Virus record (IMG/VR): IMGVR_UViG_2541047813_000002
Length of the DNA stretch: 19,395 bases
DNA from: a virus
Taxonomy: Duplodnaviria > Heunggongvirae > Uroviricota > Caudoviricetes
Strand: one strand, 5' to 3'
Shown here in pieces: positions 1 through 18,180 of the stretch. Under the pieces are notes generated by a model that did no database searches, was not told where the DNA came from, and saw only the letters and a program-made list of their open reading frames with translations. Position 1 is the first letter of the stretch. Each line of letters starts with the position of its first letter. The translations under genes were made by a program, and so were the position numbers.

Positions 1-339
1 TTATAATTTGTTACTGTGCCACTCAAGGGCAATATCTTTGAAGGTGTTGTTTAACTGCGTTTCCCGGGCAATCTTTTCCTCTCGCTTCACTTCCATCAGA
101 TCGATTCCCCCAGAGATACCTCTTTTAGCTTCTTCAAGTTTTGCAGGAGCATCAGCTAAGGTGACCTCAGGATACACACCTAGTGCTAACAGCTTCTCTT
201 TACCAGCTACACGATACTTGAGACGCCAATATTCTCCTCCACCAGGTTTTACCAGGAGGTACAGACCACCACCATCAGCCAACTTGTAAGCCTTCTCTTT
301 TGGCTTGGCAGTGTCTATTTGACGGGCATTGAGTTTCAC
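1..339 (-). CDS. int: Tyrosine integrase (P4-type), N-terminal 112 codons only; the gene continues beyond the window start. Apparent GTG start at 339.
   Basis: ORF open to window edge. N-terminus (M)KLNARQIDTAKPKEKAYKLADGGGLYLLVKP...WRLKYR is about 92% identical to the N-terminus of the complete integrase at 18181-19395 and has the typical P4-like integrase arm-binding N-domain. In-frame TAG upstream excludes a longer ORF. Confidence 0.85.
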   Translation of the reverse strand: MKLNARQIDTAKPKEKAYKLADGGGLYLLVKPGGGEYWRLKYRVAGKEKLLALGVYPEVTLADAPAKLEEAKRGISGGIDLMEVKREEKIARETQLNNTFKDIALEWHSNKL

Positions 340-575
340 TTGGGGGTATCTCCACTAAACTGAACAGCAAATCCCCTCAATTGCTTGTAGAGTTTGGGGT
401 ACTTAAATAGACGTCAAAAGACTAAAAGGGGCATTAATATACTGATTATAAGAGGTTTTTAAATACTTGAGTAGACGGGGATAATAGGAACAAAACAAAC
501 AACAAAAACACATTGATATATAATTATATTTTTTCATTACATCTTATAAGATACCCCCAAAAGTACCCCCAAACA
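339..575. promoter_or_regulatory. Integrase-proximal inverted-repeat cluster around an AT-rich core; putative int promoter and att/arm-type site region at the junction between two tandem islands
   Basis: TTGGGGGTATCT at 340-351 (+) and its reverse complement at 550-561; TTTGGGGTACT at 393-403 (+) and AGTACCCCCAAA at 562-573; the pairs flank an AT-rich segment (about 404-549) immediately upstream of the int start. Confidence 0.3.
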
Positions 576-885
576 ATTTTCTCTCACCACCATTTGCACA
601 TAAAGCAGCCATGTGCAACTGGTAACTGAACAGACGGGTAGACCATTCGTTCAGTAAATACCTGATATTTCCGCCAACGAAAAATTGCGTTGGCTGGCAG
701 AGTGCAAATTTGCACGATGACCTAACCCATTGATTTTTTCGAAAACCTGCAATGCAGGAGATCTGTGAAATAATCCTAACCCATTGGTTTTCCCACAATC
801 CTCAATTTGAGGAATGTACCTAAAACCATTTTTATAGCTCCGATCCCTTCAAAGTGAGGGGTAATTTGCCAAAACAGAGAGAGCA

Positions 886-1173
886 TTACTGTCTCTGGCA
901 ATCTTTATCGCGATAACGCCTGAAGTACCCTCTCGCTTCCTCATCCATACCAAGAGCCGAATGAGTCCGCTTAACTGCCTGTCTTAAATCTCCGAATCTG
1001 TCTGTAGTTGCTGGTGGGCGTGCCGCCTTACGGATACATTCAGAGCGTCTGTTTGCTGCATGTTCACGTTCTTTATCGCCATCTGCCAGCATCATGACTT
1101 CTGCCCATCGTGCGGCAGCTCTCCGGTATAGCCCTTTTGACTCCAGCTCTTCAGCTTTCCTGTCCTTTATCAT
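886..1173 (-). CDS. PerC-family-like small transcriptional regulator (95 aa)
   Basis: ATG at 1173 with GAGAGG 5 nt upstream. Sequence MIKDRKAEELESKGLYRRAAARWAEVM... matches my recollection of the PerC/Pch family N-terminal signature (AEELExKGLxRRAAxRW); not verified by search. Confidence 0.55.
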   Translation of the reverse strand: MIKDRKAEELESKGLYRRAAARWAEVMMLADGDKEREHAANRRSECIRKAARPPATTDRFGDLRQAVKRTHSALGMDEEARGYFRRYRDKDCQRQ

Positions 1174-1209
1174 TTCTGCCTCTCAGATTATATAGATAAG
1201 CAAAAAGGT

Positions 1210-1330
1210 GTTGGTTCAGTTGGTTCAGTTGGTTCAATTTGTAAAGAGCGTTGTTTTTATTGTGTTTTTTCTAAAATATTGAACCAACATCAACTCATTT
1301 TGAACCAACACAGCCCAGCTCTGAACCAAC
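1210..1330. repeat. Iteron module A: three contiguous GTTGGTTCA 9-mers (1210-1236), 43-bp AT-rich spacer, three TGAACCAAC 9-mers at 21-bp spacing (1280, 1301, 1322)
   Basis: Read directly from sequence. Reverse complement of module B at 9393-9504. Confidence 0.75.
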
Positions 1331-1432
1331 AACACAGCGATAGATTTGTGATTGGTCCGTTATTTTCTGACTGATATTTGAGCGTATAACAGTGTTATAC
1401 AGTGGTATACTGTATGGATATTACTCACTGAT

Positions 1433-1873
1433 ATGGTCTTTGCAATGAGCAAATCTAATCTGATCGCGTTCCGCATCCCATCTGAATTGCAGGATGAGTT
1501 TAATCGGTCTGTTCTCGCTTCTGGAGGGGATAAAACCTCCTGGCTTGTTGATGCGATTCGCATGAAGCTGGGACAGCCGGAAAAGTCTATTGATTCACGA
1601 ATGCTTGGGCTGGTGGAGCGCATGGAAAAAGCCGCAGCATCGCTTATTGCCGGAAAGCCGAACATCCCACCAAAGCCATATAACGAAACGGCAGTTATAA
1701 AGATCATTGCCGATACCATCCGACAGGGATTTGATAATGGGCGTGTGATAGCTGAACGGCTCAATGAAGCAGGCTACCAAACAAAAGCTGGTAAAGCGTG
1801 GGATAAAGACATTTACAGCGCGTGGAAGCGTCAGGGTAACAATATTAAAAGAATCAATACGCTGCTTCAGTAA
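1433..1873 (+). CDS. Putative DNA-binding protein (146 aa) with RHH-like N-terminus and recombinase-type HTH-like C-terminal segment; start could be M5 at 1445
   Basis: ORF adjacent to iteron module A and to palindromes at about 1384-1415 (TATAACAGTGTTATA, ATACAGTGGTATACTGTAT). N-terminus KSNLIAFRIPSELQDEFNRSV and C-terminus IAERLNEAGYQTKAGKAWDKDIYSAWKR. Function is inferred. Confidence 0.55.
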   Translation: MVFAMSKSNLIAFRIPSELQDEFNRSVLASGGDKTSWLVDAIRMKLGQPEKSIDSRMLGLVERMEKAAASLIAGKPNIPPKPYNETAVIKIIADTIRQGFDNGRVIAERLNEAGYQTKAGKAWDKDIYSAWKRQGNNIKRINTLLQ

Positions 1874-1902
1874 TTGATCAGTGTATAAATGATATTTATC
1901 GC

Positions 1903-2925
1903 TCAATCGCTCCCTTTCCGCCCTTCAGCTACAGGGTCGTTGTCGGCGATAACAAAACCTAAGTCCTGAGAGAATCTCTCTCGTGGGAATCCTTTAGCAG
2001 GTAAACCCATTGAATCATATCCACATCCGGGAACATTTGGTTTAGAGTCAATAAGGTCTGCAATTTGCCGAAGCCATGTTGATCCCGGACCAAGTCGTTT
2101 AACTAAGTACCAGATAATACAGATCGCGCTAAAAATCCTCTCGCAACTCTCTGGATGGAGATTAAGTCCGTCAAAGTATTCATTATCCGGTACTGGAACT
2201 CGGGGATGCTTTCTATTCCATATTCTGGAATGGTGAGCGCAACGATTCCTTATGAGATTAAGGCACTTCAACCATTTTGCAAATGTCTGCTTATTATCAA
2301 TGCCAAAACGACGTATAATTTTCCCCTGCATATGACCATTAAGCATCGCATAATATTTAGACATCTGACCAAAATCCCATGTCTCCACCGCCACCCAAAA
2401 TGGAATCTCCTTGCCTTGGCTTCGATGCCATTCAATACAGTCATCTCTGCTTTCGTCTAATTTTACTTTTTGCTTATACACCCAATGCTCGAAGGCAGAT
2501 GAGAATTTTGGATTAATGTATTTTGATGACATGTAGGCAAGTGGATCATTGCGACCAACCTCATGCGCGATGACTGAACGAACATGAATCTCTATTCTTT
2601 CGATAGCATCAATCATCAAAAGACGCAGTTTTTTGTCAAAAAGATATAGATCGTACGTCTTCTCGAAACTGGTACCAGCAAGAAATCGGTCTGTTCTGTA
2701 CGAAAGACCTTTATCTGTTGTCGCAATAATTCTTGAAGGGTACCAAAAACCTGACAATCGATAATATCCAACCTGCGACAGCTTACGTATCGCACGATTT
2801 CGATCATTGATAATCATGCCACGTTCAAGTAGCAATCCTAGCAATTCGTGATAGTCCTTATGAGGCTTTGCGGCAATCATAGTGGCGAAACAAAAGATAA
2901 TAAAAGGCCCGACCGTGAAACTCAC
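1903..2925 (-). CDS. Abi_2 family (AbiD/AbiF-like) abortive-infection protein; true start possibly ATG at 2880
   Basis: KPHKDYHELLGLLLERGMIINDRNRAIRKLSQVGYYRLSGFWYP matches the conserved Abi_2 N-terminal signature (...YYRLSxYWYP). Lower-GC than the replication module. No convincing RBS at either candidate start. Confidence 0.8.
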   Translation of the reverse strand: MSFTVGPFIIFCFATMIAAKPHKDYHELLGLLLERGMIINDRNRAIRKLSQVGYYRLSGFWYPSRIIATTDKGLSYRTDRFLAGTSFEKTYDLYLFDKKLRLLMIDAIERIEIHVRSVIAHEVGRNDPLAYMSSKYINPKFSSAFEHWVYKQKVKLDESRDDCIEWHRSQGKEIPFWVAVETWDFGQMSKYYAMLNGHMQGKIIRRFGIDNKQTFAKWLKCLNLIRNRCAHHSRIWNRKHPRVPVPDNEYFDGLNLHPESCERIFSAICIIWYLVKRLGPGSTWLRQIADLIDSKPNVPGCGYDSMGLPAKGFPRERFSQDLGFVIADNDPVAEGRKGSD

Positions 2926-3682
2926 ATGCCTGAAATCGGCGGCGGAGAAACAGAGGATCGGGCTCGGTTGCCTGTAACTCTATCCGAAGTTATCCACATG
3001 TCAATGCACAGTTACTTAGGAAACTAACATAGATACTATCATCACTCACGAAAAACCACTATATGTGGTTTTTATTCATATCGTTATCCACTACAGGCTG
3101 TGTCAATAACTTTTACCTATTAATTGGGTAATTTCTACATTTTCCTATGCTGGCTAGTTTCTCTACTGAAAAGTTGGCACTCCTTAATCGCTTTTCGGTT
3201 AATACTATCGGTCTTCATATTGCCAGCAGCATACGCCATCCGATAATTTCTATGCTACGCGCGCGTACTTGTCGCAAAATATCAGGCAAAGGCCAGATTC
3301 AGAACGTCGTGATAACCACCAGCACAACATGAGATGTCATGTAACACGATTTATCACATCAGATACATGTGATTGGTGTACCCGCATAAAACATCGTCAT
3401 AGCGCGTCCTGTGCACATATACGCCGATAATCAACACATCACCACCACTCTGTCTCGTGTAGAGAACAGTTTCATGGTATCCCCCGCCATCGTGTGCGTA
3501 CTGGTCGGACGTAGTTGCAAAATTTTTGCAACTGATACCCCTCGCGCGCGTACTGGTCACGAAATTGGTGTTTTGCTGTGGCAGTGATATCAGAAAAATC
3601 TTCCTGTTTCACATAAAGCGGATATGCGCGTACTGTAACAGCCCCATCAACTGGGAGCGGATTTGAAATCCCGACCCAAGCT

Positions 3683-4102
3683 ATGTACCAAATGCCATGT
3701 CTTGGATATATGATGATTGCCATTCTAAACAAAGCTAAAGGGAGGGTTGGTGTGAATGCTCAGGCTGTCATCATGGTTTTCCTTGGTCTGATTGTCGCAA
3801 AACTATATCCAGACTGGTGGAAAGGGGCATTAGCAACTGTCGCCATCTATTTGCTTTTATCCGTCGTTAAGCGATCGTTCGTTAAGACCGTAAATCAAGC
3901 AAAACGTTTCTCATTTAAGAATTTAATAAACTATATTACTGGGCTTATTTTTTGCCTTTCACTTTTGATCGCTTCAGCTTTTTTGCCCGTATCAATAGCT
4001 AATTTTTTTGGCGCACCATATGAGGTAGGTTATCTATTCTCTGTTTTTTGTCTTGTTCTTTCCCTTCTTTACCTATGGATGAGAGCAAAGAACAAAAATT
4101 AG
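3683..4102 (+). CDS. Small polytopic membrane protein (about 116-139 aa); probable start GTG at 3752
   Basis: AAGGGAGGG sits 5 nt upstream of GTG 3752. Three to four hydrophobic helices (VIMVFLGLIVAKLY, ATVAIYLLLSVV, ITGLIFCLSLLIASAFL, LFSVFCLVLSLLYLW). AT-rich. Convergent with the 701-aa gene. Confidence 0.55.
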   Translation: MYQMPCLGYMMIAILNKAKGRVGVNAQAVIMVFLGLIVAKLYPDWWKGALATVAIYLLLSVVKRSFVKTVNQAKRFSFKNLINYITGLIFCLSLLIASAFLPVSIANFFGAPYEVGYLFSVFCLVLSLLYLWMRAKNKN

Positions 4103-4120
4103 CCATCCATGGCTAACCAG

Positions 4121-6226
4121 TTATTGAGCTTCTTTTTGTGATGCCTGTGCGACTCTGGTGAGCGATTGTGTGACCGTACTGATCGCTCTGTCATATGCTG
4201 TGCTACCTTTTGGCGTATTTGCCAGACGTAACAAGGCATTTCGTATAACAGGGCTTTCGTATGCCTTCGCTGCTCCGCCTACGGCACCAGCAGCAGGAAC
4301 AACAAACGCAGCCGTTTTTAGCATCCCCGCTAATACTGCTGCGTTTATGATGCCACCACCAACTAACAATCCATAAAGCTGCTGACCATTTAAGTTTTGA
4401 ACGTTCGCTTTTGCCGCGTGTCTTGTATCGTTGAGGTATTTAATAACGCCGTCCAGTTCCTTTCCATGTACGCCTTTAAAGAAAGTTGCTGATTGCTTCC
4501 TGTTCCGGTGTAACGCATTAATAAACTTCTCAACACTGATATTTCCAGACGGATCAGTCGCCTTATCTACAGCATTCTGAACTATGGCTGCTCGTGCGTT
4601 TTGCCTACCATTGTCATCCAGAAGCCTGTAAAGCTGAGAACGTTCTGATGGGCTTTGGCTAAAAACGAGTTTTGTTACATCCTCAGGCGTGGCCTTGCCG
4701 CTGGCTATTGCCTTTTGAACGCGCGTTCTTCCCATCATGTCATTGAATTTAGACCATGAACGATCAACCCTTGCCATATTAATGGCTTCGTCTGCTCCAA
4801 GATTTTTGGCTACGGCTTTTTTCATATCCGCCGTATATGCCTTGTAGATAATATCGCTGGCTTTCTGGAGCGTATCTTTATCAACAGTGTCAGATGACGC
4901 CATAAATCGCTTTCGAAGATCGGTTCTGTTTTCCCTCGCCAGACGCAGGTCATTTGGTCCGCTGGTGATATCGTCTTTAAATTGCTGCAAGACTTTTACC
5001 GCGGCTCTATCCTGAGATTTGCCCGGGCGGCTTAACACGGCAATCTGATTGTCGATAGCTTTTACCGTGTTTGAGAGATCGACAGGGGTATCCCCCATAG
5101 CGTCAATTATGCGGTTATATCGCTTTCCTGCTGCCTCAATGAATTTTTGTTGCCCTTTAGTCGCAGATTCATAAAGCTGTTTATCAGAAATGCCACCCAG
5201 ACCATCGCTAAATGTTCTGACTAAATTTTCTCGTGCTTGTTGTTGATTCAGCCGATTCTTACCGGTTCCAAAAAAAGGAACTCTTTCGCCTAATGTCTGA
5301 GCCTGACTCTGCATAAAGGTTTTATCTTTCAGCATGTCACTGGTCATTAACGGCAGATTTCTTTCCGATGCAAAGTCGACAGCAGCCTTTGCTTCAGGCG
5401 ACATATCACCACGAACAGCCCTCGAAACCGCACTCGCTGTATTTTCCAGCCCCTTACCAATACCACCAATGCCAGCAGAAATTACCGTTTGTAACGGTTC
5501 AATATCTTCTCCACCAGCAAGGCTAGTGGCTCCCTGTAGTGCTAAATCTGTAGCTGCTGATTTTCCTATGGCACCAAGCACCGTTCCAGCCCTGCCAGCT
5601 GGTGTAAACGCCAACGCATTAGCAAGAAACGAAGTCAGGTCTTGCGGTGATAAACCCGGCTTGTTCAGGGCATAATCACCTGATGGCAGAGAAACGATAG
5701 TATTCCCCTTCTCATCCTGCCTTAATGTCGCCCCCATTCCCTGAAGAATCTTTTCCTGAGACGCGTCAGAGCCGAAAAGTTGAGACCATCCAGCCTTTAG
5801 GGCATCCATGCTTAGTGAGTTCAATTCTGGGGCAGAGGCGACATTTTGCAGTCTCTCCATCTCTGGAGTCATTCGGCTTTCGCCTGTTATAGCATCGCGC
5901 ATCGCAGCCCCAAGACTGGCTCCCTGTTCTGCTGAACGCTCAAGCCCCTCTCTTTGCTGAGTAGCTAACTTTGCATACCCTGACGCAAGAGAATTATCAG
6001 ATGATGTATGTTGAATATTTTGAGTTGCTGATTGGGATCGGTCTATTTCATTCGTTGATGGTAGTGGATAGGCAGCATAAAAAGCCTGCTTAGCCTGCTC
6101 TACACTTTCTCCGGCTTGCGGGGCAACGACTTCATTGAAGTATTGCTCCTGAGCCTGCGCTTTTTGTTCTGGTGCTAACGCCTGATACTGTGGAGAGGCG
6201 ATAACATCTTTCCATGCTTTAGCCAT
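4121..6226 (-). CDS. Large Q/A/G-rich protein (701 aa) with C-terminal glycine-zipper hydrophobic segment; phage ejection/DNA-transfer protein-like (P22 gp16-like by size and position)
   Basis: Long ORF; ATGA start/stop overlap with the upstream gene at 6226; C-terminal LLVGGGIINAAVLAGMLKTAAFVVPAAGAVGGAAKA. The family assignment is an inference, not a match. Confidence 0.85.
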   Translation of the reverse strand: MAKAWKDVIASPQYQALAPEQKAQAQEQYFNEVVAPQAGESVEQAKQAFYAAYPLPSTNEIDRSQSATQNIQHTSSDNSLASGYAKLATQQREGLERSAEQGASLGAAMRDAITGESRMTPEMERLQNVASAPELNSLSMDALKAGWSQLFGSDASQEKILQGMGATLRQDEKGNTIVSLPSGDYALNKPGLSPQDLTSFLANALAFTPAGRAGTVLGAIGKSAATDLALQGATSLAGGEDIEPLQTVISAGIGGIGKGLENTASAVSRAVRGDMSPEAKAAVDFASERNLPLMTSDMLKDKTFMQSQAQTLGERVPFFGTGKNRLNQQQARENLVRTFSDGLGGISDKQLYESATKGQQKFIEAAGKRYNRIIDAMGDTPVDLSNTVKAIDNQIAVLSRPGKSQDRAAVKVLQQFKDDITSGPNDLRLARENRTDLRKRFMASSDTVDKDTLQKASDIIYKAYTADMKKAVAKNLGADEAINMARVDRSWSKFNDMMGRTRVQKAIASGKATPEDVTKLVFSQSPSERSQLYRLLDDNGRQNARAAIVQNAVDKATDPSGNISVEKFINALHRNRKQSATFFKGVHGKELDGVIKYLNDTRHAAKANVQNLNGQQLYGLLVGGGIINAAVLAGMLKTAAFVVPAAGAVGGAAKAYESPVIRNALLRLANTPKGSTAYDRAISTVTQSLTRVAQASQKEAQ

Positions 6227-7359
6227 TAATCACCCCATAGTGAAGAAAAGTTACTGCTGGCTGCTGGCTGTGATACCTGCTCAGATTGCGGCAATGTCTG
6301 CGACGAAGAAGAAGTTCCTCTGTCAACTGCTGAAATAACCCGCAAAGCATCATAAGCTCGACCAGAAGCAGCTTTCAGCGAATTGAACTGGTTTTCCATC
6401 TTCCGGCGCTTGGTATCAATGGTTTTTGTGGAGTCGCCAGGCTGAGGGAAATACATTTGATAATATTTTGACATTTCAGCAGGTGCGATAGCTGCCCCTG
6501 TTTCCTGACGGAGTATTGCCATTATTGCGTCATTAGCATTAACAACGTATTGCTGCTCTGTTGGGCTGAGCGTTAAGTTAGCCAGCGTCCCATTACCCAA
6601 AGCATTATTAATGATCGCCACTCGCTGTGGGCTAAGCTGGTCTCTCAGTGTATCTATTGAATCAAGAGCATCCCTAACCCTGTATGCAAATCCAGCAGCT
6701 TTTTTAGCCCCTTCTGGCGACTTTTCCATGATCTTTTGGGCTGTTGGCAAAGCTATTGGACGAAACCCATCTCCAGATATTGGCTGGTTTAGTTTTCCCT
6801 GCTCTTCACTTCCGTCTGTGTAGTATTTTGTGACAGTGCCATCATCGTTTTCTCTAACACTCATTAATTTTTTGGCGTTTGTATTAATTCCAGCCGCTGC
6901 CGCAAATGCCGCCGCCCCCTCTGGATCCGCCTTTAACATTTGAGCGTACTGATTGTAATTCTGCATTGCTGCTGTTGGTGCATATGCTGACGTTAACGCA
7001 TTTGCTCGGCTAATATCCTGCCCTCTCGCCTGAAGTGCTTCGCCAGCCTGATTGCTGCGGATTGTTTCTGCCAACTTGCCACGCTCAATATCCCGACCTT
7101 CCATTTGATCTTTGATATCGAAATACTTCTCATGACCGAGAGAAAACAGTGCCATACTACCAGCAAGCCGCTGGAATCCCTGTGGATCATTAACATGCAT
7201 TTCGGCAACAGACTCAGGAGAAATTCCCAAGCGACGCATTTCATCTTCGTTATCTGCTATGAATTTTCCAAATGCCCCAGTTCCGAGCGAAGATGCGATT
7301 TGAGCACTAGTCGCAAGATGACCAATAGAATTTCTCTGGTCGTCATCAATAAAGCCCAT
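6226..7359 (-). CDS. C-terminal 377 codons of an apparently split ~470-aa gene (P22 gp20-like size)
   Basis: Reading frame stays open and protein-like upstream of the ATG back to a TGA at 7420-7422. No usable RBS before ATG 7359 (AAAGGG abuts the ATG). Confidence 0.75.
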   Translation of the reverse strand: MGFIDDDQRNSIGHLATSAQIASSLGTGAFGKFIADNEDEMRRLGISPESVAEMHVNDPQGFQRLAGSMALFSLGHEKYFDIKDQMEGRDIERGKLAETIRSNQAGEALQARGQDISRANALTSAYAPTAAMQNYNQYAQMLKADPEGAAAFAAAAGINTNAKKLMSVRENDDGTVTKYYTDGSEEQGKLNQPISGDGFRPIALPTAQKIMEKSPEGAKKAAGFAYRVRDALDSIDTLRDQLSPQRVAIINNALGNGTLANLTLSPTEQQYVVNANDAIMAILRQETGAAIAPAEMSKYYQMYFPQPGDSTKTIDTKRRKMENQFNSLKAASGRAYDALRVISAVDRGTSSSSQTLPQSEQVSQPAASSNFSSLWGD

Positions 7360-7634
7360 CCCTTTCTGAACGCTTTCAAATTCTTCTGGATACTCAGCAT
7401 TTTGTTTCTGTCTCCAGACTCAAAAGCCCCGGCATATGCTTTCTGAAACTCTGCTTTACGCTGTTGTTGACGTGCCTGCTGATTAATCTCAGCAACGCCT
7501 CTTAGCCCCTGTAGCGCCATTAAACCTACGTTTGGCTGCTGCTGATACTGCACAGGCTGAGGAACGGAAGAACGAGGAGCATTATCATTTTGCGGTGCCA
7601 TGCTAGGCAGCCCGCCAAGTTGCCATGTCGCCAT
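7257..7634 (-). CDS. N-terminal fragment of the same split gene; translationally coupled to the upstream 225-aa gene (TAATG); protein-like only for the first ~80 codons
   Basis: ATG 7634 overlaps the stop of the 225-aa gene. Sequence is Q-rich like its neighbours until about 7400, then becomes junk-like (ALLMTTREILLVILRLV) where the 377-codon frame takes over. Confidence 0.5.
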   Translation of the reverse strand: MATWQLGGLPSMAPQNDNAPRSSVPQPVQYQQQPNVGLMALQGLRGVAEINQQARQQQRKAEFQKAYAGAFESGDRNKMLSIQKNLKAFRKGWALLMTTREILLVILRLVLKSHLRSELGHLENS

Positions 7635-8311
7635 TAGAATCCAAGCCCCCCAACAAGACCAATAAGCCCACCACCAATAGCCCCGGCGACATTACCTATA
7701 CCCGGAACAACGGAACCAAGTTGCGCACCCGCTAAAGCGCCTGATGCCGCCCCACCAATACCACGCGCAAGACTGGATGGCTGCTGCGCCTGACCTGCAC
7801 GAATAGCGCCAAGCCCCTGCAAGAGTTGCCCGGTATTATTGGCGTAGTTTTGCCCTGCTGTTGCCTGCCCTGATGCCGCATTCATCCCGACATTTAGCAG
7901 GTTTCCATAATTTTGCATTTGCCCACTAAGCCAATTGTTATAAAGCATGGGCGCAATGGAAGATAACTGGTTACTGGTAGCTGTTGAGCCAAGCCCCCCG
8001 GTAGCTTCTGCTGAGACAAGGTTCTGATAACGGGCCTGATCTGCCTGTGTTTTATATAAACCAGAACCAAAGAAATCATTCGCGGCTTTATTCTGCCCTT
8101 CCAGAGTCATCAGTCCTTGTAGTTGTTGTAAAGCAGGCAATCCGACTTCTGCATACGGCTTGAGATTATTCATCACCGTATTCCACTGCTCGCGCTGCAA
8201 ATCAATTGCCTGCTGCTGGGCCTTCGCCTGAGCTTTAGAGGCACCACCATCACCGCCTTTTTCGTATACGGCACGATTGAGATGTTTATGAGCTATATGG
8301 GTAATTAACAT
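7634..8311 (-). CDS. Q/G-rich protein (225 aa) with C-terminal glycine-zipper; ejection-protein-like (P22 gp7-like size)
   Basis: ATG 8311 with AAGGAA upstream; overlaps the stop of the 153-aa gene. Contains EKGGDGGASKAQAKAQQQ and ends GIGNVAGAIGGGLIGLVGGLGF. Confidence 0.85.
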   Translation of the reverse strand: MLITHIAHKHLNRAVYEKGGDGGASKAQAKAQQQAIDLQREQWNTVMNNLKPYAEVGLPALQQLQGLMTLEGQNKAANDFFGSGLYKTQADQARYQNLVSAEATGGLGSTATSNQLSSIAPMLYNNWLSGQMQNYGNLLNVGMNAASGQATAGQNYANNTGQLLQGLGAIRAGQAQQPSSLARGIGGAASGALAGAQLGSVVPGIGNVAGAIGGGLIGLVGGLGF

Positions 8312-8766
8312 TCGCTGAATTCCTTATATTGTTGCCGAGTTAACTGATAAAGCGTTACGCCGACGGGTTTACCACATCTGATATAAGCATCATCAAGGTG
8401 ACCAACACGGGTAGCGCCAAGCAAACGGATAATTGCCCGTCCGTATTTGGTGGTGTCAGGAACCATGGTAATGCTGTTAAGGAATGGTGAGTTTTCGAGA
8501 AGCCATTTGCAGAATAATCGATGCCCTTGCAGTGCATATTCACCACGGAATCCGGGGTCGTACACCGCATGGCATTCAACAATGCTATGCCAGAAGTTAC
8601 GCACTTCATGAACGCCAGCCAGCACCAATCCTTCGTAGATACCGAGATATACCGCATCAGGCTTGATGTAGTACGTGTGCCCCGGCTCAACAATATTTTC
8701 GGTATTGCCAGGCTCGTTAAGAAAGGCCTGTAATCGCACAGGGTTATCAATAAATTTTAGTTCCAT
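8305..8766 (-). CDS. Hypothetical protein (153 aa), first large gene of the operon
   Basis: ATG start; ORF; stop overlaps the start of the next gene. Confidence 0.8.
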   Translation of the reverse strand: MELKFIDNPVRLQAFLNEPGNTENIVEPGHTYYIKPDAVYLGIYEGLVLAGVHEVRNFWHSIVECHAVYDPGFRGEYALQGHRLFCKWLLENSPFLNSITMVPDTTKYGRAIIRLLGATRVGHLDDAYIRCGKPVGVTLYQLTRQQYKEFSEC

Positions 8767-8782
8767 GCGATGCCATCCATTT

Positions 8783-8944
8783 TCACATACAGCCTGCCAG
8801 CGCCTTATCTATTAACCCTCGTGCAATTTCATGCAGAGTTGGCGCTACTCCAATTCCTGATTTTTTACGCTGCTCTTCCTGAATTTTCTTTATCGCTTCC
8901 ATTTGCTTCTCACTTATCAATACCGGCTTTACTGAAATAGCCAT
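8783..8944 (-). CDS. Small RHH-like (ribbon-helix-helix) protein, 53 aa, below the ORF-track size cutoff
   Basis: ATG 8944 preceded by AAGGGGG (4-nt spacer). MAISVKPVLISEKQMEAIKKIQEEQRKKSGIGVAPTLHEIARGLIDKALAGCM has a beta-strand-helix-helix pattern. Ends 16 nt before the 153-aa gene. Confidence 0.45.
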   Translation of the reverse strand: MAISVKPVLISEKQMEAIKKIQEEQRKKSGIGVAPTLHEIARGLIDKALAGCM

Positions 8945-9039
8945 AACGCCCCCTTAGAACTGTATAAAACAACAGTTATTATAGTTTCATAAATCGCAAT
9001 ATTCATCATCGTGATTGCAAAATATGAAACAAATAGCAC

Positions 9040-9071
9040 AAAAAAATGCCACCGCTCAGTAGCTGGTGGCA
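9040..9071 (-). terminator. Rho-independent terminator for the primase transcript
   Basis: On the minus strand: TGCCACC-11 nt-GGTGGCA hairpin followed by TTTTTTT (plus-strand A-run 9040-9046). Confidence 0.55.
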
Positions 9072-9265
9072 TCGTTCTGTGTGTCAGGTTTTGACAGGTT
9101 TTTTATGGACTCTAAAAACTATATTTATGGTGTCGCATTACTCTTCACGGAAGGCGCTTTCCAGTTCTGCCCTTGCTTCTGGCTCCATTGGTAATTTGAT
9201 TCGCGATCAGCTATGCGGATGGTTTGCTGAACAGGCATAACAACTTCTCAGGGGCTGTTTTCTGA

Positions 9266-9342
9266 ACTACGAAAATTTCGTAGTGCTCACTTTCAAAAAC
9301 GTCACGCCCTTGTACACAGGATTTTACGAAAGTCTCGTAAAA
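9266..9342. promoter_or_regulatory. Two palindromes sharing TACGAAA half-sites within the origin region
   Basis: ACTACGAAAATTTCGTAGT (9266-9284, perfect 9-bp arms) and TTTTACG-7nt-CGTAAAA (9322-9342). Confidence 0.35.
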
Positions 9343-9392
9343 CACTCTCTGATGCCAGCCAGGTGTTGTGCGCATCAATTCAGTCACATTGT

Positions 9393-9504
9393 GTTGGTTC
9401 AAAATACCGTGTTGTTGGTTCAGTGTTGGTTCAATAAAAAGAATAAAATCCTTATAAAACAACACTCTTTACAAATTGAACCAACTGAACCAACTGAACC
9501 AACG
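9393..9504. repeat. Iteron module B (putative ori): GTTGGTTCA at 9393, 9414, 9425; AT-rich spacer; three contiguous TGAACCAAC at 9478-9504
   Basis: Read directly; lies between the primase stop (9529) and the terminator; reverse complement of module A. Confidence 0.75.
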
Positions 9505-9528
9505 CCTTTTCTACGCACATGAAGAAGC

Positions 9529-12288
9529 TCATTCTTCAGATGAGTTGTAATCTCCTGGCTGGTAATTGAGTACATAAACGTTTATTTGTCGTCCCTGAAT
9601 ACGTGGTGATTTTCTTTGGTATCCACGACCGCTGTTTGGTGGGGTTAGCATCCCGGCTTTTTTCAACACTTCAGCAAACTGTTTTGCGTTGAAACCACAT
9701 GCGATCTCCTTTTCAAATGTGGCCGGGAATGTGTAGAAAATCATTGGGCTTTCGTCATGTTCTCCACGCTGACGGTATCCGGCTAAATCTTTGATGGGCA
9801 AATCTGCCGGGCTGTATGGAAATGGTGCAAAACGGCTAAGCCCATAGGCATTAAGAAATGCCTCCGTTTGTTCAATAATCTGCTGATGTTCTTTGTTACC
9901 TGTGCCGAACTCGCGCAACCATGCGTTATAGCTGTGCTGTATCGCATCACGGCATGTCTGAGCATCCCAGCCTGTTACAACCTCGCCTAACAGCAATGCG
10001 GCCTCCAGAATGGCAAATCGCGCGGCTACACGGTGAACCTGCTCACCATAATCGGATGGGATCAGACTTCTCCATCTGCTTTCGCAGTCACGAACAGTTT
10101 TAATTGCCTGTTGCTGGTGGTCTGCCAGCCATTTAATCCACTCACGCCCGGCTGCGCCGTGGTGATGCTGGTAAGCGTCTTTCAGTGCGTCTGCGTGCTG
10201 TTTTCCGTTCTGGTAATCGTGAAAGCGTACTGCTTTACTCAACGGAATATTCAGCAGTCGCACCAGTTGTCCGGCTTTGGTTTTTCGCCCGGAAGTAGCG
10301 ATAAATGTTTCTAAATCCATTTCTCCGGTGCTGATTGCCACTGTACGCCAGCGTTTTAGATCCCGGTTTCCACCATCTTTAGCGCCTTGCAGTTTCCCTA
10401 CACCGTTAAATAACGCATAGGCAGACTGTGAAACACTGACAGGATCAGCGCCCTGACCAACTTCATCAAGCGGCATTAGTCCGTCATTGTGGGCGGCGGC
10501 TTCATTTGCCAGCCCCAGCGCGGTTCCGTACCACGTCAGCCGCAGTAAATCAGGGTTGCCGTATAAGCTGCTCGCCACGTTTGCCGTGGTGGTCTTACCT
10601 GCGCTCGACTGCTCATAGAAATGAATGCCGAACCCGTCAGCGCCCACCAGCCCAATCAATGGCGCTGCCAGTGCTGCGCCGATCCCGGTCATCATTGAAT
10701 AGTTACCAAAGGCCAGACGCGCCACGTTATCACGCCAGCTTTTCGCGCTCCCTGAGACGGTATATCCGGCTGCGGCTGAGCTTCTCCCGCTGAACAGCAC
10801 AGGATTTTCAGGTGTTCCGATGATTTCCCCATCAGGCATGATGTACGCTCCGCATTGCCAGCCAGTGGCATGAGCAACACGCCACAATTCACGAGAGCCA
10901 CTGCGTTGTAGCCAGTCTGCCAGTATTGCTCTGAGGCTGCTTTTGGTCGTGACATTTACCCCACCAGCTTTAAGTGTGCGCCATCCTTCACGTTCACCAA
11001 TATCAGCCAGTGGAATGGCAGCGGTTGTCGGCGTTTCAGAACCAAACGACAGCCAGCGAAGAATGAGATACTGGTCTTTATCGTCTCTGCCAGTACCGAT
11101 AACGCTTAACGGCGAACATAACCAGCTTTCGTTATTGATGATTTCTCCACTCTGGCTGTCAGCTCTCGGAGATACCCAATAAATACCATCCTCTCGGCTT
11201 TCTATTCTTGGTTTCAGTGGGTCGGTATCCATAACCTTAAAATCGCTTCCCTCAATGGTCTGTGGCTCCTGTTTCACGCCATTACCCTGTGGTTGGTACA
11301 TTGACTTATTGAACGTTTCTGTGGCGCATTTAATGCCGTGTTTTTGGTGGTAATCATTCCAGTCTGCTTTGTGATCTGTCGGGGGTAATGCCACCCATCC
11401 AGAAACAGATAAAGCTGCTTTTTCTGCTGCTATTCTCCCCGTGTTTTGTCTTCCTTCGCTGTGGTCGTTATCCGCAGCAATGATGATTTGTGCTGAAGGA
11501 TATTTATCCCGCAGTACCTGGGCGACATATAACAGGTTCCCGGCATCAATCGCCGCCACTGTCAGCGCCTCTGGACGAATTAAATGGGCAGATAATGCCG
11601 TTGCCAGCCCTTCTGCGATTAAGATGCTCTGTGTTGTTTCTGGTGCGTTTATGGCGTGATATGCTCCCCGTTTTGCTGAACCTGTCAGGAGTCTTTTTTC
11701 ACCATGTGAGGTAATAGTCTGTGCTGCTGTGACTGCGCCGGATTTATCCACCAGCGCCAGCAACAGAGATCCATCGGGCAACACGGGGAATGTAAAATCA
11801 CCTACCCCTTTCGCAACCAGATAATCAGATTTACCGTTTACAGCCTTTCTGCGCATGTCATCAAACTGACGGGAAAACGTATCCCGTCTTTGTTGTTCGT
11901 CCTTCTCTGCCCTTTTCAGGCGCTCCTGTTCGCGTCGCTGGCGCTCGGTTTCCAGTTGTTCCCGTTTCTGGCTGGTGGCTTCTGGTGTTTCCGTTGTCCG
12001 GTAATCAATACCCAGAACATCAGCGGCAAGAAGCGCCGCCTCTGTTGTGTCGCAGTTATTTACGCGTTTAATTAAATCCAGCCCATCACCAGCGCCGCAC
12101 TGATTACAGATGAAGCTACCGCGCCCGTTGTCATCGAACCGGAATCGATCTTTGCCCCCACATGCAGGGCAGGGAGCATGACGGCGCGGAGAGTCAGGGA
12201 CATTTATGTTCAGGCAGCCCAGCACATGAGGCCAGTTGTTTTCAGACGCACTGATAACCTGACGGATAAGATCAATGTTTCGCATCAC
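9529..12288 (-). CDS. Primase with zinc-ribbon and Toprim domains plus a P-loop NTPase-like domain (P4 alpha-like); probable start ATG at 12285
   Basis: CPACGGKDRFRF...FICNQCG zinc ribbon; Toprim acidic motif IIIAADNDH; P-loop-like SSAGKTT; 919-aa ORF. Confidence 0.95.
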   Translation of the reverse strand: MMRNIDLIRQVISASENNWPHVLGCLNINVPDSPRRHAPCPACGGKDRFRFDDNGRGSFICNQCGAGDGLDLIKRVNNCDTTEAALLAADVLGIDYRTTETPEATSQKREQLETERQRREQERLKRAEKDEQQRRDTFSRQFDDMRRKAVNGKSDYLVAKGVGDFTFPVLPDGSLLLALVDKSGAVTAAQTITSHGEKRLLTGSAKRGAYHAINAPETTQSILIAEGLATALSAHLIRPEALTVAAIDAGNLLYVAQVLRDKYPSAQIIIAADNDHSEGRQNTGRIAAEKAALSVSGWVALPPTDHKADWNDYHQKHGIKCATETFNKSMYQPQGNGVKQEPQTIEGSDFKVMDTDPLKPRIESREDGIYWVSPRADSQSGEIINNESWLCSPLSVIGTGRDDKDQYLILRWLSFGSETPTTAAIPLADIGEREGWRTLKAGGVNVTTKSSLRAILADWLQRSGSRELWRVAHATGWQCGAYIMPDGEIIGTPENPVLFSGRSSAAAGYTVSGSAKSWRDNVARLAFGNYSMMTGIGAALAAPLIGLVGADGFGIHFYEQSSAGKTTTANVASSLYGNPDLLRLTWYGTALGLANEAAAHNDGLMPLDEVGQGADPVSVSQSAYALFNGVGKLQGAKDGGNRDLKRWRTVAISTGEMDLETFIATSGRKTKAGQLVRLLNIPLSKAVRFHDYQNGKQHADALKDAYQHHHGAAGREWIKWLADHQQQAIKTVRDCESRWRSLIPSDYGEQVHRVAARFAILEAALLLGEVVTGWDAQTCRDAIQHSYNAWLREFGTGNKEHQQIIEQTEAFLNAYGLSRFAPFPYSPADLPIKDLAGYRQRGEHDESPMIFYTFPATFEKEIACGFNAKQFAEVLKKAGMLTPPNSGRGYQRKSPRIQGRQINVYVLNYQPGDYNSSEE

Positions 12289-12643
12289 CGTACCCCACGT
12301 GGTCTATAGCGTTTGCGATATGGCTAACCAGCATCTGCCACTTGGTTATTCCGTAATCAGTCAGCATGCCATCATTGTTTAGCCACATATCAAATTCAGC
12401 GGTTGTCGCAAGTTTCCACTTATCGCCGTGGACAGTCCTCATTGCTGGGTACATGAATGCGCAAATCAGATCACAAACATCTGACGGCTTCAGAGATGTA
12501 GTAATGGTGCGTCCCTCTGGCGTCTGAATTGCCATTTTCTCTTCACCAGTAGAATGAAGGTTATGAATCCACACAGCGCCAGCAATCTTTGCCACCTGCT
12601 CTCCGATTGCGGAGCTAAGCGCCATTTCTGCATTTTCACGCAT
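12272..12643 (-). CDS. Hypothetical protein (123 aa); paralog of the upstream 113-aa gene
   Basis: GGGAGG sits 6 nt upstream of ATG 12643; start overlaps upstream stop (ATGCGTGA). Shares NDGMLTDYGITKWQML with KDGLTDVGREIWQSM in the neighbour. Confidence 0.75.
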   Translation of the reverse strand: MRENAEMALSSAIGEQVAKIAGAVWIHNLHSTGEEKMAIQTPEGRTITTSLKPSDVCDLICAFMYPAMRTVHGDKWKLATTAEFDMWLNNDGMLTDYGITKWQMLVSHIANAIDHVGYGDAKH

Positions 12644-12977
12644 GAGAACCTCCCGCTACAGTTGCGCCCATGTCATTAACCATGCTTTGCCATATCTCAC
12701 GCCCGACGTCAGTCAATCCGTCCTTAGTGACGCAACGATCAAGAAGCTCTATCCCCACGGTTTCCCACTGCGGGTAGAACACTTTCATGGCTGCCAGTGT
12801 GTAGCTATCGATCAGGCTGCGAACGCCTTTTACTCCATTGACGATTTCCACACGGACGGCCTCGCCGTCCGCATCAACCATGAAATAGTCCCCGCCGCTG
12901 GTGGAGGTAATGTGGTTATACAGTGCCGACGCATACTTATTTGCCAGCGCATTTAGTCGGAAATTTTTAGTAATCAT
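12636..12977 (-). CDS. Hypothetical protein (113 aa); paralog of the 123-aa gene
   Basis: ATG 12977; ORF; shared motif with the downstream gene. Confidence 0.75.
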   Translation of the reverse strand: MITKNFRLNALANKYASALYNHITSTSGGDYFMVDADGEAVRVEIVNGVKGVRSLIDSYTLAAMKVFYPQWETVGIELLDRCVTKDGLTDVGREIWQSMVNDMGATVAGGSHA

Positions 12978-12987
12978 GGCTCCATCC

Positions 12988-13590
12988 TCAGTGCGTCACT
13001 GGTTCCGCTGGCATGCCGTTTTCATTCAGTTCAGCTATAAAGCTGTTGTGAAGTTCAGCAAGCGTTTCACGACCAAATGGAGTCAGTGCTCCTTGTTCCA
13101 CATCCATCATGGCTCTGTAGAAAATGATGGCGCGTTCTGTGCCAGACTCGATGCCAAAACGTTCTATCATCGCGCCCTCAATGTTGTTTGCCATAGCGAG
13201 GCGCTCTGCTACTGGATACAGCGGCATGGCGACGATGCCGTTGGAATAAACAGCCACTTCGGAAGGATTGCCAGTATCATCAATGATGCTGACAGTGCCG
13301 TTTTCCTCTCTCATTTCCAGCATGAATACTGTTGCGATCAGCCATCTCCACATAATGACGTTATGCTGTGATGTGTAATCGAAATATCCCTGGTTGCCGC
13401 CATCGGCAATAGCGAGATGTATTGACATACCTTCATCTGGTTTATCGTCATAATCCCCGGCATCCAGACGATTTACGGCATCAATATATGAGACGGCCTC
13501 AACGCGTTCTGTCATGCCATCGTTGCTGCGGTACATGATGTTTACGCCGTCAGGCGTTGCTTCTGCATGGAAAGTTAAGAAATTATTCAT
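12988..13590 (-). CDS. Hypothetical protein (200 aa); start reassigned to ATG 13590
   Basis: GAGG RBS, and ATGAATAA overlap with the stop of the upstream 73-aa gene. The ORF-track extension to 13695 overlaps that gene out of frame. Confidence 0.7.
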   Translation of the reverse strand: MNNFLTFHAEATPDGVNIMYRSNDGMTERVEAVSYIDAVNRLDAGDYDDKPDEGMSIHLAIADGGNQGYFDYTSQHNVIMWRWLIATVFMLEMREENGTVSIIDDTGNPSEVAVYSNGIVAMPLYPVAERLAMANNIEGAMIERFGIESGTERAIIFYRAMMDVEQGALTPFGRETLAELHNSFIAELNENGMPAEPVTH

Positions 13591-13804
13591 GTTTCGCCTC
13601 GCCTGAATGATTCTGTAACTCATATTTGCCCAACAATTCGTCCGCTTCCTGAATAGCTTCTGGTACGCCATTGAGCAGTGACATAACCGCGCCAATCATT
13701 AACTTGTCTCTGTTGCTGGGGCTGGCCCCTTCAAGCCAGAACCCTAAAACAGTCTGAACCTGTTCGATGCGACATTGCGCTTCAATGAGCTGGATGTTGG
13801 TCAT
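13583..13804 (-). CDS. Hypothetical small protein (73 aa)
   Basis: ATGA overlap with upstream gene; part of the coupled operon. Confidence 0.65.
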   Translation of the reverse strand: MTNIQLIEAQCRIEQVQTVLGFWLEGASPSNRDKLMIGAVMSLLNGVPEAIQEADELLGKYELQNHSGEAKHE

Positions 13805-14064
13805 TTCGCACTCTCCACATCGATTAAACCGATATCTATCAGGGAGGTAACTTTTTGTAGCCAGCTATTGATTACTGTCGCCTGTTCCCCTCCCACCGAG
13901 GGAACAATCTCATTCATCACATGAACCAGACCTGTGCGCGCTCTGGTAAGCCGTTCAGTCGCGCAATCTGCGGGAGTGAATGTGTCTGGATATGGCTCTT
14001 CGCGCCCCAGCAATGATTCAATTTCCAGCTCACACGGATGACGATAAATTAAGTTGATATTCAT
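13801..14064 (-). CDS. Hypothetical small protein (87 aa)
   Basis: ATGA overlap with upstream gene; part of the coupled operon. Confidence 0.65.
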   Translation of the reverse strand: MNINLIYRHPCELEIESLLGREEPYPDTFTPADCATERLTRARTGLVHVMNEIVPSVGGEQATVINSWLQKVTSLIDIGLIDVESAK

Positions 14065-14255
14065 TTTTCACCCCCAAGAATTACCAGCTCTGCACGGGCA
14101 TCGTTAACCAAAGATGAGCACGCTTTAATCGCATCCACGACATCAGCAGCGTCCATTTCTTCAGCCGAAAGACTGACAGCAACCAGGACAGCCGCTGCTT
14201 GCTCGATTAATTGAAGTGCGGACGTAAGGCGAGGGGTATTAATTGAGTTATTCAT
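14061..14255 (-). CDS. Hypothetical small protein (64 aa; [10 protein letters not shown]...)
   Basis: ATG 14255 with GGGGG upstream; ATGAATAA overlap with the stop at 14248-14250. Confidence 0.6.
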   Translation of the reverse strand: MNNSINTPRLTSALQLIEQAAAVLVAVSLSAEEMDAADVVDAIKACSSLVNDARAELVILGGEK

Positions 14256-14466
14256 TGGTTGCCCCCGTTTTTCCTGGCATTTCGCCACCTTCCAGCAGGA
14301 AATGAACGTCGCGAACGGCGAGGTCCAATATCGCGAGTAACGCCTTCAGTCTTTCGTCTCGTGAGGGAGAGTTGCTCACCAGAATGTCGTTAATCACTTC
14401 TGTCAGTGTGATGATCTGGCTTGTGCGTTCGAGGGGGTCCATATGCACATCGTAGGTTTTAATCAT
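14248..14466 (-). CDS. Hypothetical small protein (72 aa; [17 protein letters not shown]...)
   Basis: GGAGGTGG sits 6 nt upstream of ATG 14466; ATGATTAA overlap with the stop of another frame. In-frame with the long ORF 14248-15315. Confidence 0.5.
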   Translation of the reverse strand: MIKTYDVHMDPLERTSQIITLTEVINDILVSNSPSRDERLKALLAILDLAVRDVHFLLEGGEMPGKTGATNE

Positions 14467-15315
14467 GTGCCACCTCCATGCGGATACGACCAGCAAAAAA
14501 GCAGACGTGATCGCGCACCAGAGAACGGCGAGCATCGCGTTCAGACTCGGCAGCAATATGATGAATTTTGGCGGTAATTGTCGGGCAATCGCGGCGAACT
14601 GCGGCGATAATCCAGATAAATTGCGTTTTTTGGGTAGGGGTAGTAGCCAGCATGTGGCAGCCTCCTTGTACTGGGAATTCTTCCCACCACCGGAGCTGCG
14701 AAACTCGCTGGTGGTGGACTGAACAGAGTTCGCAGTACCGGCGTACAAGGAAACCGGCCAGCCTTTCGGCTGCCCTGTCCAGCCCACCATAATTTTGCAA
14801 GCGACGCGGATTATAACCACATCACTGAAAAAAGTGTGAGTCTGGCTAACGGCACAAAAAAAGACGCTCGGCGCGTCATGTGTCGCCTCGTACATTTCCG
14901 GGCTGCGAAACCCGGCACCCGTTTTATGAGGTGCCTTATAACCATAAACCGTGTTGCCGCATAACGGCAAGCTCTTTTTTATGGACTCCGAAAACTCACT
15001 ATTGGAAGAACCAGAAGCACAGTACATCGTGCTCATTTCGTTAACGTCACGCGCGTGGACGAATGTTTTTGTGGAGTCACTACACGAGCGGAAGACATCA
15101 TCTACGACCAGAAATTTTCTGGCGCAGCCGCTGACCTTCTCAATGCTAATATCATCGCCCGAGATTTCTGGTATGGTTAAGGCATCCGTTCCGACCACCA
15201 GCAAATGATAAACTTTGCTTGTATCTGCTGTATTAATGCCTGACTTTGCCGTCATATTGCTGGATTTTGGCGACATGCCAGCCAGTGAAAATGTCTTCTT
15301 CTGGACGGTTAGCAT
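14248..15315 (-). CDS. Long ORF (355 codons) anchored by a well-supported start at 15315; the 3' extent is doubtful and it may be chimeric. The N-terminal ~150 codons are protein-like.
   Basis: GGAGGTT sits 6 nt upstream of ATG 15315, which overlaps the upstream stop (ATGCTAA). The distal half is W/P/C-rich and overlaps two RBS-supported small ORFs. Confidence 0.4.
14459..14653 (-). CDS. Possible small protein (64 aa; [11 protein letters not shown]...), or part of a structured non-coding region
   Basis: AAGGAGG sits 7 nt upstream of ATG 14653; stop coupled to the next start. The region also has open frames on several other strands and frames and nested inverted repeats. Confidence 0.35.
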   Translation of the reverse strand: MLATTPTQKTQFIWIIAAVRRDCPTITAKIHHIAAESERDARRSLVRDHVCFFAGRIRMEVAHD

Positions 15316-16317: not shown

Positions 16318-16329
16318 TTTCAGTCTCCG

Positions 16330-16958: not shown

Positions 16959-17040
16959 GTTTACTCCTATATTCTGTCATCTTCTTTAATGGACATCAGT
17001 AGACAGAAAGGAGATTAAACAAACCGGTGAATGGGTGATA

Positions 17041-17111: not shown

Positions 17112-17155
17112 AAATCGCGAAATTTACTTAAAACGTTTACGTAGGATTTTGCTTG

Positions 17156-18037: not shown

Positions 18038-18180
18038 ACGCCACCCCGCGCCCCCTAATTCTGACGGCTATGCCAGCCCGTAGGGGTGTACGGGTTTTCG
18101 GGGATCAGCCTAGACATAGCCTATTCTTTGTTCGTCTACATAAGTCTACTACCATTGCTTAACACTGTCTATTCATACAG

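Follow-up and report, generated by a model that had tools for sequence, protein, structure and literature searches.

Two related integrase genes at the two ends of one stretch of DNA raise the question of whether a single mobile island has partly duplicated its own integrase, or whether two islands have come to lie side by side at one integration site. The stretch considered here (the window, 19,395 nt in full) very probably represents the second situation: it would comprise one complete unit of a tandem array at the thrW gene of E. coli, along with the initial 339 bp of a second unit. The complete unit is the body of an EcCIMP1-like phage-inducible chromosomal island (PICI) of about 19 kb (480-19395, minus strand; an 18.9-kb unit), and the other is the edge of an older toxin islet that carries vat and vatX. 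The tandem architecture of a PICI and an islet at thrW was already published in 2025 (PMC11773190). What is added here is a map of the probable arm-type sites, their conservation across the integrase family and their co-variation with one residue of the Arm domain, as well as the islet as a probable decayed member of the same att/int family, a deletion at the junction, and a frameshifted gp20-like gene.

Two integrase genes and two separable units

According to the preliminary description of this DNA, the window is bounded by two related but non-identical int genes, about 92% identical over 112 aa. This is what is found: the two proteins share 103 of 112 aa (92.0%) and the two genes 304 of 339 nt (89.7%) in an ungapped alignment, with 23 synonymous and 9 non-synonymous codon differences. 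The right gene (18181-19395, minus strand) encodes the intact tyrosine integrase of the PICI, with 404 codons and a GTG start. Three Pfam domains are recognized in its product, Arm-DNA-bind_3 (PF13356, E 1e-28), Phage_int_M (PF22022), and Phage_integrase (PF00589), and residues R241, H330, R333, H356, and Y366 fall in the conserved R..HxxR..H..Y motifs. The right protein thus combines the Arm part with the central and catalytic parts that characterize IntS/P4-type tyrosine integrases, whereas the left one has the Arm part only. The right integrase would catalyse recombination at its att site; the 98%-identical integrase of E. coli MP1 is required for PICI excision.

The left gene (1-339, minus strand) is the int' remnant of the vat islet, with 112 codons running from a GTG at 339-337 to a TAA at 3-1. 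Arm-DNA-bind_3 is its sole Pfam domain (E 9e-24), and RefSeq labels the product 'Arm DNA-binding domain-containing protein, missing C-terminus'. It had been called a partial int; the open reading frame is as described, but it is not the edge of the window that cuts it. Homology to the full-length int extends to codon 112/113, beyond which the E. coli genome YP3 continues with AT-rich, unrelated DNA, so that the gene is truncated in the genome itself. A nonsense mutation is ruled out as the cause of the short left int, since homology stops at the stop codon. As it ends after codon 112, the left gene is a remnant and not an integrase. The GTG starts proposed for both genes agree with their relatives, which have ATG, GTG, or TTG at that position, and GGAG is found 9 nt upstream.

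A tRNA scan found no tRNA gene inside the window. The earlier suggestion that a tRNA would be met on extending the sequence is borne out in two related genomes: thrW, encoding tRNA-Thr(CGT), lies beyond the right edge, 165 bp upstream of the right int, in L003 (Escherichia sp. MOD1-EC7003), whose sequence agrees at 100% with the right-hand 2712 nt of the window, and in YP3, which matches the whole window at 99.8%. The order in YP3 is yagU, an int C-terminal fragment (159 nt), IS1, vat, the MarR gene (vatX), the 112-codon int' pseudogene, and then the PICI, with about 18.9 kb of satellite-like genes and the complete int, followed by the 165-bp spacer, thrW, and proA. The 165-bp P' arm of the PICI and its thrW core lie just to the right of the window edge. 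On the other side, vatX-vat-yagU are found beyond the left edge in related genomes. The exact 112-aa product occurs in 46,171 indexed blocks of the collection, with vatX-vat next to it in all six places shown; from this constant neighbourhood and from the 100% identity of 1-476 with MP1, we infer that vatX-vat also flank the window on its left.

A copy of the tRNA 3' end is present at the junction as well. The preliminary description viewed the region next to the left int as an attL/attR junction created by serial integration at one tRNA-type site, and held that a single island with a duplicated int would show no att core repeat near 340-575. Such a repeat does exist: GATAATAGGA at 480-489 copies part of the thrW 3' end and lies where the homology upstream of int breaks, so that the pattern expected of a single island does not apply. 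It forms direct repeats with the same sequence in thrW, just past 19395, in L003, YP3, and MP1. In YP3, cores are found in thrW, at the counterpart of 480-489, and, in the degenerate form GATAATATAA, at the yagU end, and an int or an int remnant adjoins the first two. Each unit therefore has its own copy of the tRNA 3' end and its own int, and each also occurs independently of the other, as expected from serial integration.

This independence was assessed by building the predicted junction in which the islet lies directly at thrW, and by comparing it with real genomes. The junction was found in one piece, at 99.8% over all 812 nt, with 494 records matching at 99% or more, and the int remnant lies directly at thrW in about 490 E. 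coli genomes. Of 5426 complete E. coli genomes, 84 contain the PICI, counted as a match to at least 80% of the window, and the PICI-islet tandem junction is present in 16 genomes. In EcPNK004, the PICI adjoins a dnd/dpt island instead; homology to the window begins there at 480, and the junction reads TGGTGC-GATAATAGGA, which corresponds to 16 of the final 17 nt of thrW. In other genomes that carry the int remnant, it is joined to thrW itself, to the P arm of an Ag43/CbtA-type island, or to a prophage. The remnant-at-thrW junction and the PICI beside a dnd/dpt island both agree with the earlier proposal of tandem islands as separate units.

Two int copies that are close to each other (92% at the protein level) and in the same orientation could also have arisen by internal partial duplication within a single island, in which case the repeats of 340-575 would be internal regulatory DNA. 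We consider this very improbable. The copy of the thrW 3' end stands exactly where homology breaks, many genomes have either part alone, and the PICI part alone excises in MP1 (PMC11773190). A DNA divergence of about 10%, including the 23 synonymous changes, further argues against a recent duplication.

The favoured reading, a tandem of PICI and islet, corresponds to a locus described in E. coli MP1. There, EcCIMP1, a PICI of 19,963 bp, is inserted in tRNA-Thr between proA and yagU, next to an 'adjacent unclassified genomic island' (MarR and pseudogenes including vat) that also lies in tRNA-Thr (PMC11773190). According to the same study, the PICI lies between direct repeats of TCCTATTATC, the proposed att core, the PICI circle is seen only with the P22-like helper phage Kapi1 and requires the integrase and alpA, EcCIMP1 is transduced by Kapi1, and excision of the adjacent island was detected in none of the conditions; arm-type sites are not mentioned (PMC11773190). 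The window shares with MP1 the site between proA-thrW and yagU, the TCCTATTATC repeat, and the MarR/vat islet. Identity reaches 100% over 1-476 (the int remnant and the arm upstream of it), 98.2% for int, and 98.1% over 7474-16952, the block that carries alpA, the primase gene, and gp14/gp7.

Further literature also has thrW as an integration hotspot with adjoining vat islands (PMC6592367, PMC7545054). The VAT-PAI or vat-vatX islands by thrW in ExPEC have the same components as the left unit, namely the int remnant, vatX (MarR), and vat between thrW and yagU, and the left unit is such an islet. The differences are that only its first 339 bp and the upstream arm lie in the window, and that the PICI separates it from thrW. 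Because of serial insertion at the thrW hotspot, the vat islet is found at different distances from the tRNA among strains. The correct annotation of the window would be an EcCIMP1-like phage satellite plus the edge of a vat islet, and not one island or a degraded prophage.

Anatomy of the junction at 340-575

Judged from its alignments, the region 340-575 is best described as a hybrid joint, in which the former attL (P') arm of the islet (340-479) is followed by a core, a spacer, and the tandem sites of the PICI P arm. Positions 300-700 of the window align with the thrW-int spacer at about 80% identity from the int start to GATAATAGGA and do not align past it, and matches to PICI-only neighbourhoods begin at 480. 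The 10-bp core remnant GATAATAGGA (480-489, minus strand) is the reverse complement of TCCTATTATC and matches exactly the direct repeat that was published as att core of EcCIMP1; it marks the left boundary of the PICI and would be the crossover region. The T-loop was also considered as the crossover site and rejected. The P-arm side reads TTTTGTT, unlike the thrW T-loop TTCGACT, and the identity for strand exchange is therefore found only within TCCTATTATC(G)GCACCA.

On the PICI side of the core lies an AT-rich spacer of 59 nt with 17% G+C (490-548, minus strand), followed by the putative tandem arm-type sites of the P arm (549-572, minus strand), TTGGGGGTACTT and TTGGGGGTATCT, in a 12-bp register. 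The AT-rich core of the preliminary description must be narrowed accordingly: the AT-rich stretch is present, but the true core is the 10-bp GATAATAGGA and not the whole stretch. The distance of 59 nt between the core and the arm pair is also found in MP1, despite a different spacer sequence.

On the islet side, a putative arm-type site, TTGGGGGTATCT, is found at 340-351 (plus strand) in inverted orientation, some 9 nt ahead of the start codon of the left int. It overlaps the Shine-Dalgarno sequence, CTCC at 350-353 being GGAG on the coding strand. The segment 369-380 (minus strand) holds TTGAGGGGATTT, a motif match with two mismatches that appears to be the degenerate remnant of a tandem P' arm pair. 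The intact thrW-int spacer has exactly one 12-bp unit more in this region, as seen from a gap of 12 columns against L003 and the YP3 attL. The rest of the islet P' arm (385-479, minus strand) shares about 80% identity with its counterpart, the thrW-int spacer of the PICI. It contains one more G4TA copy at 393-404 (plus strand) and three (G/A/C)TCTAC-type repeats on the plus strand, at 388-392, 408-412, and 472-476, and it ends in GGG (477-479), the scar of a deletion.

Inverted repeats upstream of the left int had been noticed at the outset, and the count confirms them. TTGGGGGTATCT at 340-351 pairs with 549-560 at 12 of 12 positions, and TTTGGGGTACTT at 393-404 pairs with 561-572 at 11 of 12. 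The exact 8-mer TACCCCCA has three copies in 19.4 kb, all within 341-571; shuffling gives an expectation of 0.26 copies, and three copies were reached in one shuffle out of 200. In a related 41-kb locus, all seven exact copies of TACCCCCA sit at its three att junctions. The two halves of the inverted repeats come from different elements, the P' arm of the dead islet and the P arm of the live PICI, and do not form one att site. The IHF consensus WATCAANNNNTTR has no match within 330-640, and in a promoter and terminator scan of 280-900 matches were no more frequent than in shuffles.

A perfect 12/12 inverted pair around some 200 bp of AT-rich DNA also resembles the ends of a small transposable element, such as a MITE or an IS remnant, with 340-351 and 549-560 as its termini. 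Several observations leave this reading with an almost negligible probability. The left half (1-476) occurs without the right half in about 490 genomes, and the right half also occurs without the left; no target-site duplication is present; and the same motif keeps its place with respect to int and the tRNA core in more than 70 unrelated loci.

For a junction of two att sites, the following course of events can be proposed. An EcCIMP1-like PICI of about 19 kb would recombine, by means of its IntS/P4-type integrase, with the thrW 3' end, the crossover taking place in TCCTATTATC. As a vat/vatX islet of the same integrase family already occupied the thrW site, the islet would have been pushed away from the tRNA. 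The PICI attR (P arm at 549-572, 59-nt spacer, core at 480-489) would in this way have become fused to the former attL of the islet (340-479).

Putative arm-type sites across the integrase family

Whether the repeats are arm-type sites, as had been supposed, was addressed with 80 integrase relatives (61-100% identity) collected across Enterobacterales. Their tRNA, at about 165 bp, is Thr(CGT), Gly(CCC), Arg(TCT), Arg(CCT), Ser(TGA), SeC, or Phe. A motif-free search, for any 7-mer repeated at 11-13 bp with its reverse complement at most 30 nt from the start codon, matched 72 of 79 loci (71 at the control threshold), with a spacing that is always 12; among 3724 random 120-nt windows of these loci, 19 matched (0.5%). 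The copies typically lie at -51 and -39, in direct orientation and 12 bp apart, and at -9, inverted and over the ribosome-binding site. It is this last position that the inverted copy at 340-351 occupies, and it is kept in the same 71-72 of 79 loci. The layout recurs beside six kinds of tRNA (Thr, Gly, Arg with two anticodons, Ser, and SeC), and the motif follows the integrase rather than the tRNA.

The motif also co-varies with the Arm domain. GGGGGTA (G5TA) is accompanied by Leu in the YL-x-V segment (YL-L-V) in 39 of 39 loci, and GGGGGCA (G5CA) by Glu or Gln at that position in 21 of 21 loci, counts that are not phylogenetically independent. A third, TGTATAG-type motif goes together with a ..GLSLLI.. 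/ GWRFRYRF domain in 10 loci, a number not corrected for shared ancestry. The Leu versus Glu/Gln residue might conceivably be a simple specificity determinant for arm-site recognition. On the P side, the core, a spacer of 58-59 nt, and the tandem pair are kept in four P arms of thrW elements whose spacer sequences differ. The tandem pair is kept in the EcCIMP1 P arm, partly at the distal end of the vat islet, and, as G5CA, in an Ag43-type island.

Heterobivalent integrases of the lambda type have an N-terminal arm-binding domain and C-terminal core-binding and catalytic domains, and their arm sites are direct and inverted and found on both arms. The window integrase resembles them in its N-terminal Arm domain, its C-terminal catalytic domain, and the presence of sites on both arms. 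It differs in that its Arm domain belongs to the PF13356 family and not to that of the lambda Int N-terminal domain, in that int faces away from att, and in that the target is a tRNA 3' end. Given the layout in 71-72 of 79 loci and the co-variation with an Arm-domain residue, the comparison favours the arm-type reading: the most likely role of the G5TA repeats is that of binding sites for the N-terminal Arm-DNA-bind_3 domain of Int.

A better studied relative is the IntS/TorI system of KplE1 (CPS-53) at argW, whose integrase is 49% identical to the window integrase over its full length. The KplE1 attL carries two direct copies of the GGGTAAAA type and two inverted ones of the TTTTACCC type, all within the last 45 nt before the ATG. 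The arm-type sites of IntS are known as P'1 to P'4, with P'1 overlapping the -10 box and the sites of TorI, the RDF, lying further upstream; negative autoregulation has been reported for intS, intC, intF, and intL (PMC2951348). In both systems int points away from the tRNA, so that attL doubles as the upstream region of int, short direct and inverted repeats occupy roughly the 50 nt ahead of the start codon, and the RDF gene is uncoupled from int; next to the right int, the 165-bp spacer likewise carries copies of the arm-type motif. Differences concern the motif (GGGTAAAA versus GGGGGTA), the register (-45/-33 versus -51/-39), and the target tRNA. Binding and autoregulation were tested for IntS and are putative for the window Int.

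By extension from these systems, the Arm domain of Int would bind two direct G5TA copies, 12 bp apart, on each arm, as well as the inverted copy over the ribosome-binding site. Int might also repress its own gene through the arm sites, as KplE1 IntS does. No sigma-70-like consensus promoter was detected in the thrW-int spacer upstream of the intact int, and autoregulation is for this reason proposed by analogy. By its position, about -90 to -60, the group of (G/A)TCTAC repeats in this integrase family would be the equivalent of the TorI block, and the positions of the TorI sites in the KplE1 attL make the (G/A/C)TCTAC-type repeats of the islet arm candidate excisionase sites.

Alternatively, the G5TA repeats could be operators of the AlpA-like excisionase or of PerC, or promoter or ribosome-binding elements. 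One copy does overlap the ribosome-binding site and start codon, AlpA-type proteins bind att arms in related systems, and such a protein, co-inherited with Int, could in principle bind the repeats. This is nevertheless improbable, for the sites are found in each of the two arms, with constant spacing to the core and to int, persist by an islet that has no alpA or perC of its own, and co-vary with an Int Arm-domain residue. In KplE1, furthermore, experiments have defined the homologous position as an arm site of IntS, and the sites of TorI are short repeats of another kind, located further upstream (PMC2951348). If the repeats are indeed arm-type sites, the map and the co-variation offer an inexpensive means of predicting att arms and cross-reactivity among hundreds of IntS/P4-type integrases, which adds incrementally to a mechanism already well understood.

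State of the PICI and of the vat islet

The PICI body has the int-alpA-primase order of gram-negative PICIs, all in one direction, a size within their range of about 10-20 kb, and att direct repeats, and no capsid, terminase, or lysis families were found in the window. Just downstream of int, the int-alpA RNA motif (Rfam RF02996) is recognized at 18053-18120 (minus strand) with 46.7 bits, against a gathering threshold of 35.8. An AlpA-like helix-turn-helix protein of 65 aa is encoded at 16761-16958 (minus strand); it matches PHROG 2790 and PHROG 66, with the label 'excisionase and transcriptional regulator', and is a candidate for both the excisionase and the master regulator; its counterpart in MP1 is the alpA product that excision requires (PMC11773190). 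A Zn-ribbon/Toprim/DUF927 primase is encoded at 9529-12288, and P22-like ejection-protein genes are also present. Excision, replication, and packaging on induction by a helper phage, shown for EcCIMP1 with Kapi1, are putative for the present variant with its junction deletion and frameshifted gp20-like gene.

The islet, by contrast with this live neighbour, is dead: its int is cut after codon 112, one tandem copy is lost in each arm, and mutation has altered its distal core. Its P' arm lacks exactly one 12-bp unit and the other is degenerate (369-380), its distal P arm retains one site, and its distal core reads GATAATATAA. The features that remain are those of a decayed member of the att/int family to which the PICI belongs. 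The int remnant, which encodes exactly the Arm domain, retains its start codon, its Shine-Dalgarno sequence, and the arm-type sites upstream, and this Arm domain is predicted to share its G5TA specificity with the PICI integrase. It is conceivable, if unlikely, that the remnant is not inert and that an expressed Arm-domain protein occupies the arm sites of the PICI as a domesticated decoy. Should this be so, the remnant could change PICI excision or int expression, and would couple the two neighbours.

Differences from MP1 are concentrated on the attR side of the PICI, where about 7 kb (477-7473) are largely unlike. This part of the window carries AbiD, another PerC allele, P22 gp20/gp16-like genes of a different lineage, and an unlike P-arm spacer. 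A DUF6387 gene lies between int and alpA in the window but not in MP1. Right beside the core, 23 nt of MP1 (TTGGGGAGACGTTAGAATGGTGC) are replaced in the window by the GGG at 477-479, whereas 16 nt are absent at the junction compared with YP3, which represents an intermediate form. The deletion is absent from the 16 complete genomes listed with the tandem junction, since none of them matches the query length. With about 20 bp beside the core missing relative to MP1, this copy may not excise like that of MP1. The gp20-like gene of the window also has a 13-bp frameshifting deletion (frameshift-specific product of 377 aa). Taken with the junction deletion, this frameshifted ejection-protein gene suggests that the copy may be heading to immobilisation.

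Attachment-site architecture and integrase specificity

Across the related integrase loci beside various tRNA genes (L003-L082), the arm motif in the 60 nt upstream of each int varies together with a single residue of the Arm domain. GGGGGTA is paired with YL-L-V in 39/39 loci and GGGGGCA with YL-E/Q-V in 21/21, both counts including loci of shared ancestry, and a third Arm-domain type is accompanied by a TGTATAG-type motif. The co-varying residue is a possible simple determinant of specificity.

At window positions 477-479, about 20 bp adjoining the att core are absent relative to the corresponding locus of E. coli MP1 (L090:10686-10708). The lost segment comprises the displaced thrW 3' end, GGTGC, and a CTCCCCAA motif. 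It is present in MP1, and the closely matching genome YP3 has an intermediate form. Such a loss may take away a core-type Int site and hamper excision. The yagU-side edge of the islet (L001:13125-13283 and 13284-13395) holds 159 nt from the C-terminal part of another integrase, oriented towards the degenerate core. This fragment looks like what is left of an older insertion, the third element of this thrW array.

Ejection-protein module and P22-like phages

Phages of the P22-like type also use thrW as a target, and at a related locus (L085) the thrW slot used by the PICI in the window holds a prophage instead. Within the PICI lies a complete set of P22-type ejection-protein genes (4121-8766, minus strand), the homologues of gp14 (DUF2824), gp7, gp20, and gp16, and no capsid, portal, or terminase genes were found in this island. 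Its gp20-like gene (6226-7634, minus strand) is identical to that of YP3 apart from a 13-bp deletion at about 7397, which leaves two ORFs, of 377 and 125 codons, in place of one; because the reading frame is split in this way, the window's copy is probably inactive. EcCIMP1, a published relative of this PICI, is mobilised by a P22-like phage (PMC11773190).

Accessory region, RNA elements, and repeats

Compared with EcCIMP1, the attR-proximal third of the window's PICI (477-7473) has been swapped. This region carries a different PerC allele, AbiD (1903-2925; PADLOC, E 8e-58), and two uncharacterised plus-strand ORFs (1433-1873 and 3683-4102), and behaves as a hotspot for accessory or defence genes would. 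Furthermore, a DUF6387 gene (17156-18037, minus strand) lies between int and alpA, whereas the MP1 element has none there.

An Rfam search placed a C4 antisense RNA (14707-14794, minus strand, 81 bits) and isrK (14857-14934, minus strand, 69 bits) within or overlapping an ash-family gene, which suggests that the PICI has an RNA-based immunity or antirepressor control region of the P1/P7/P4 style. Two 39-nt direct repeats, 72% identical and each with a short hairpin, are found at 721-759 and 775-813, and perC and the P arm have a separate 13-bp inverted repeat (589-623) between them.
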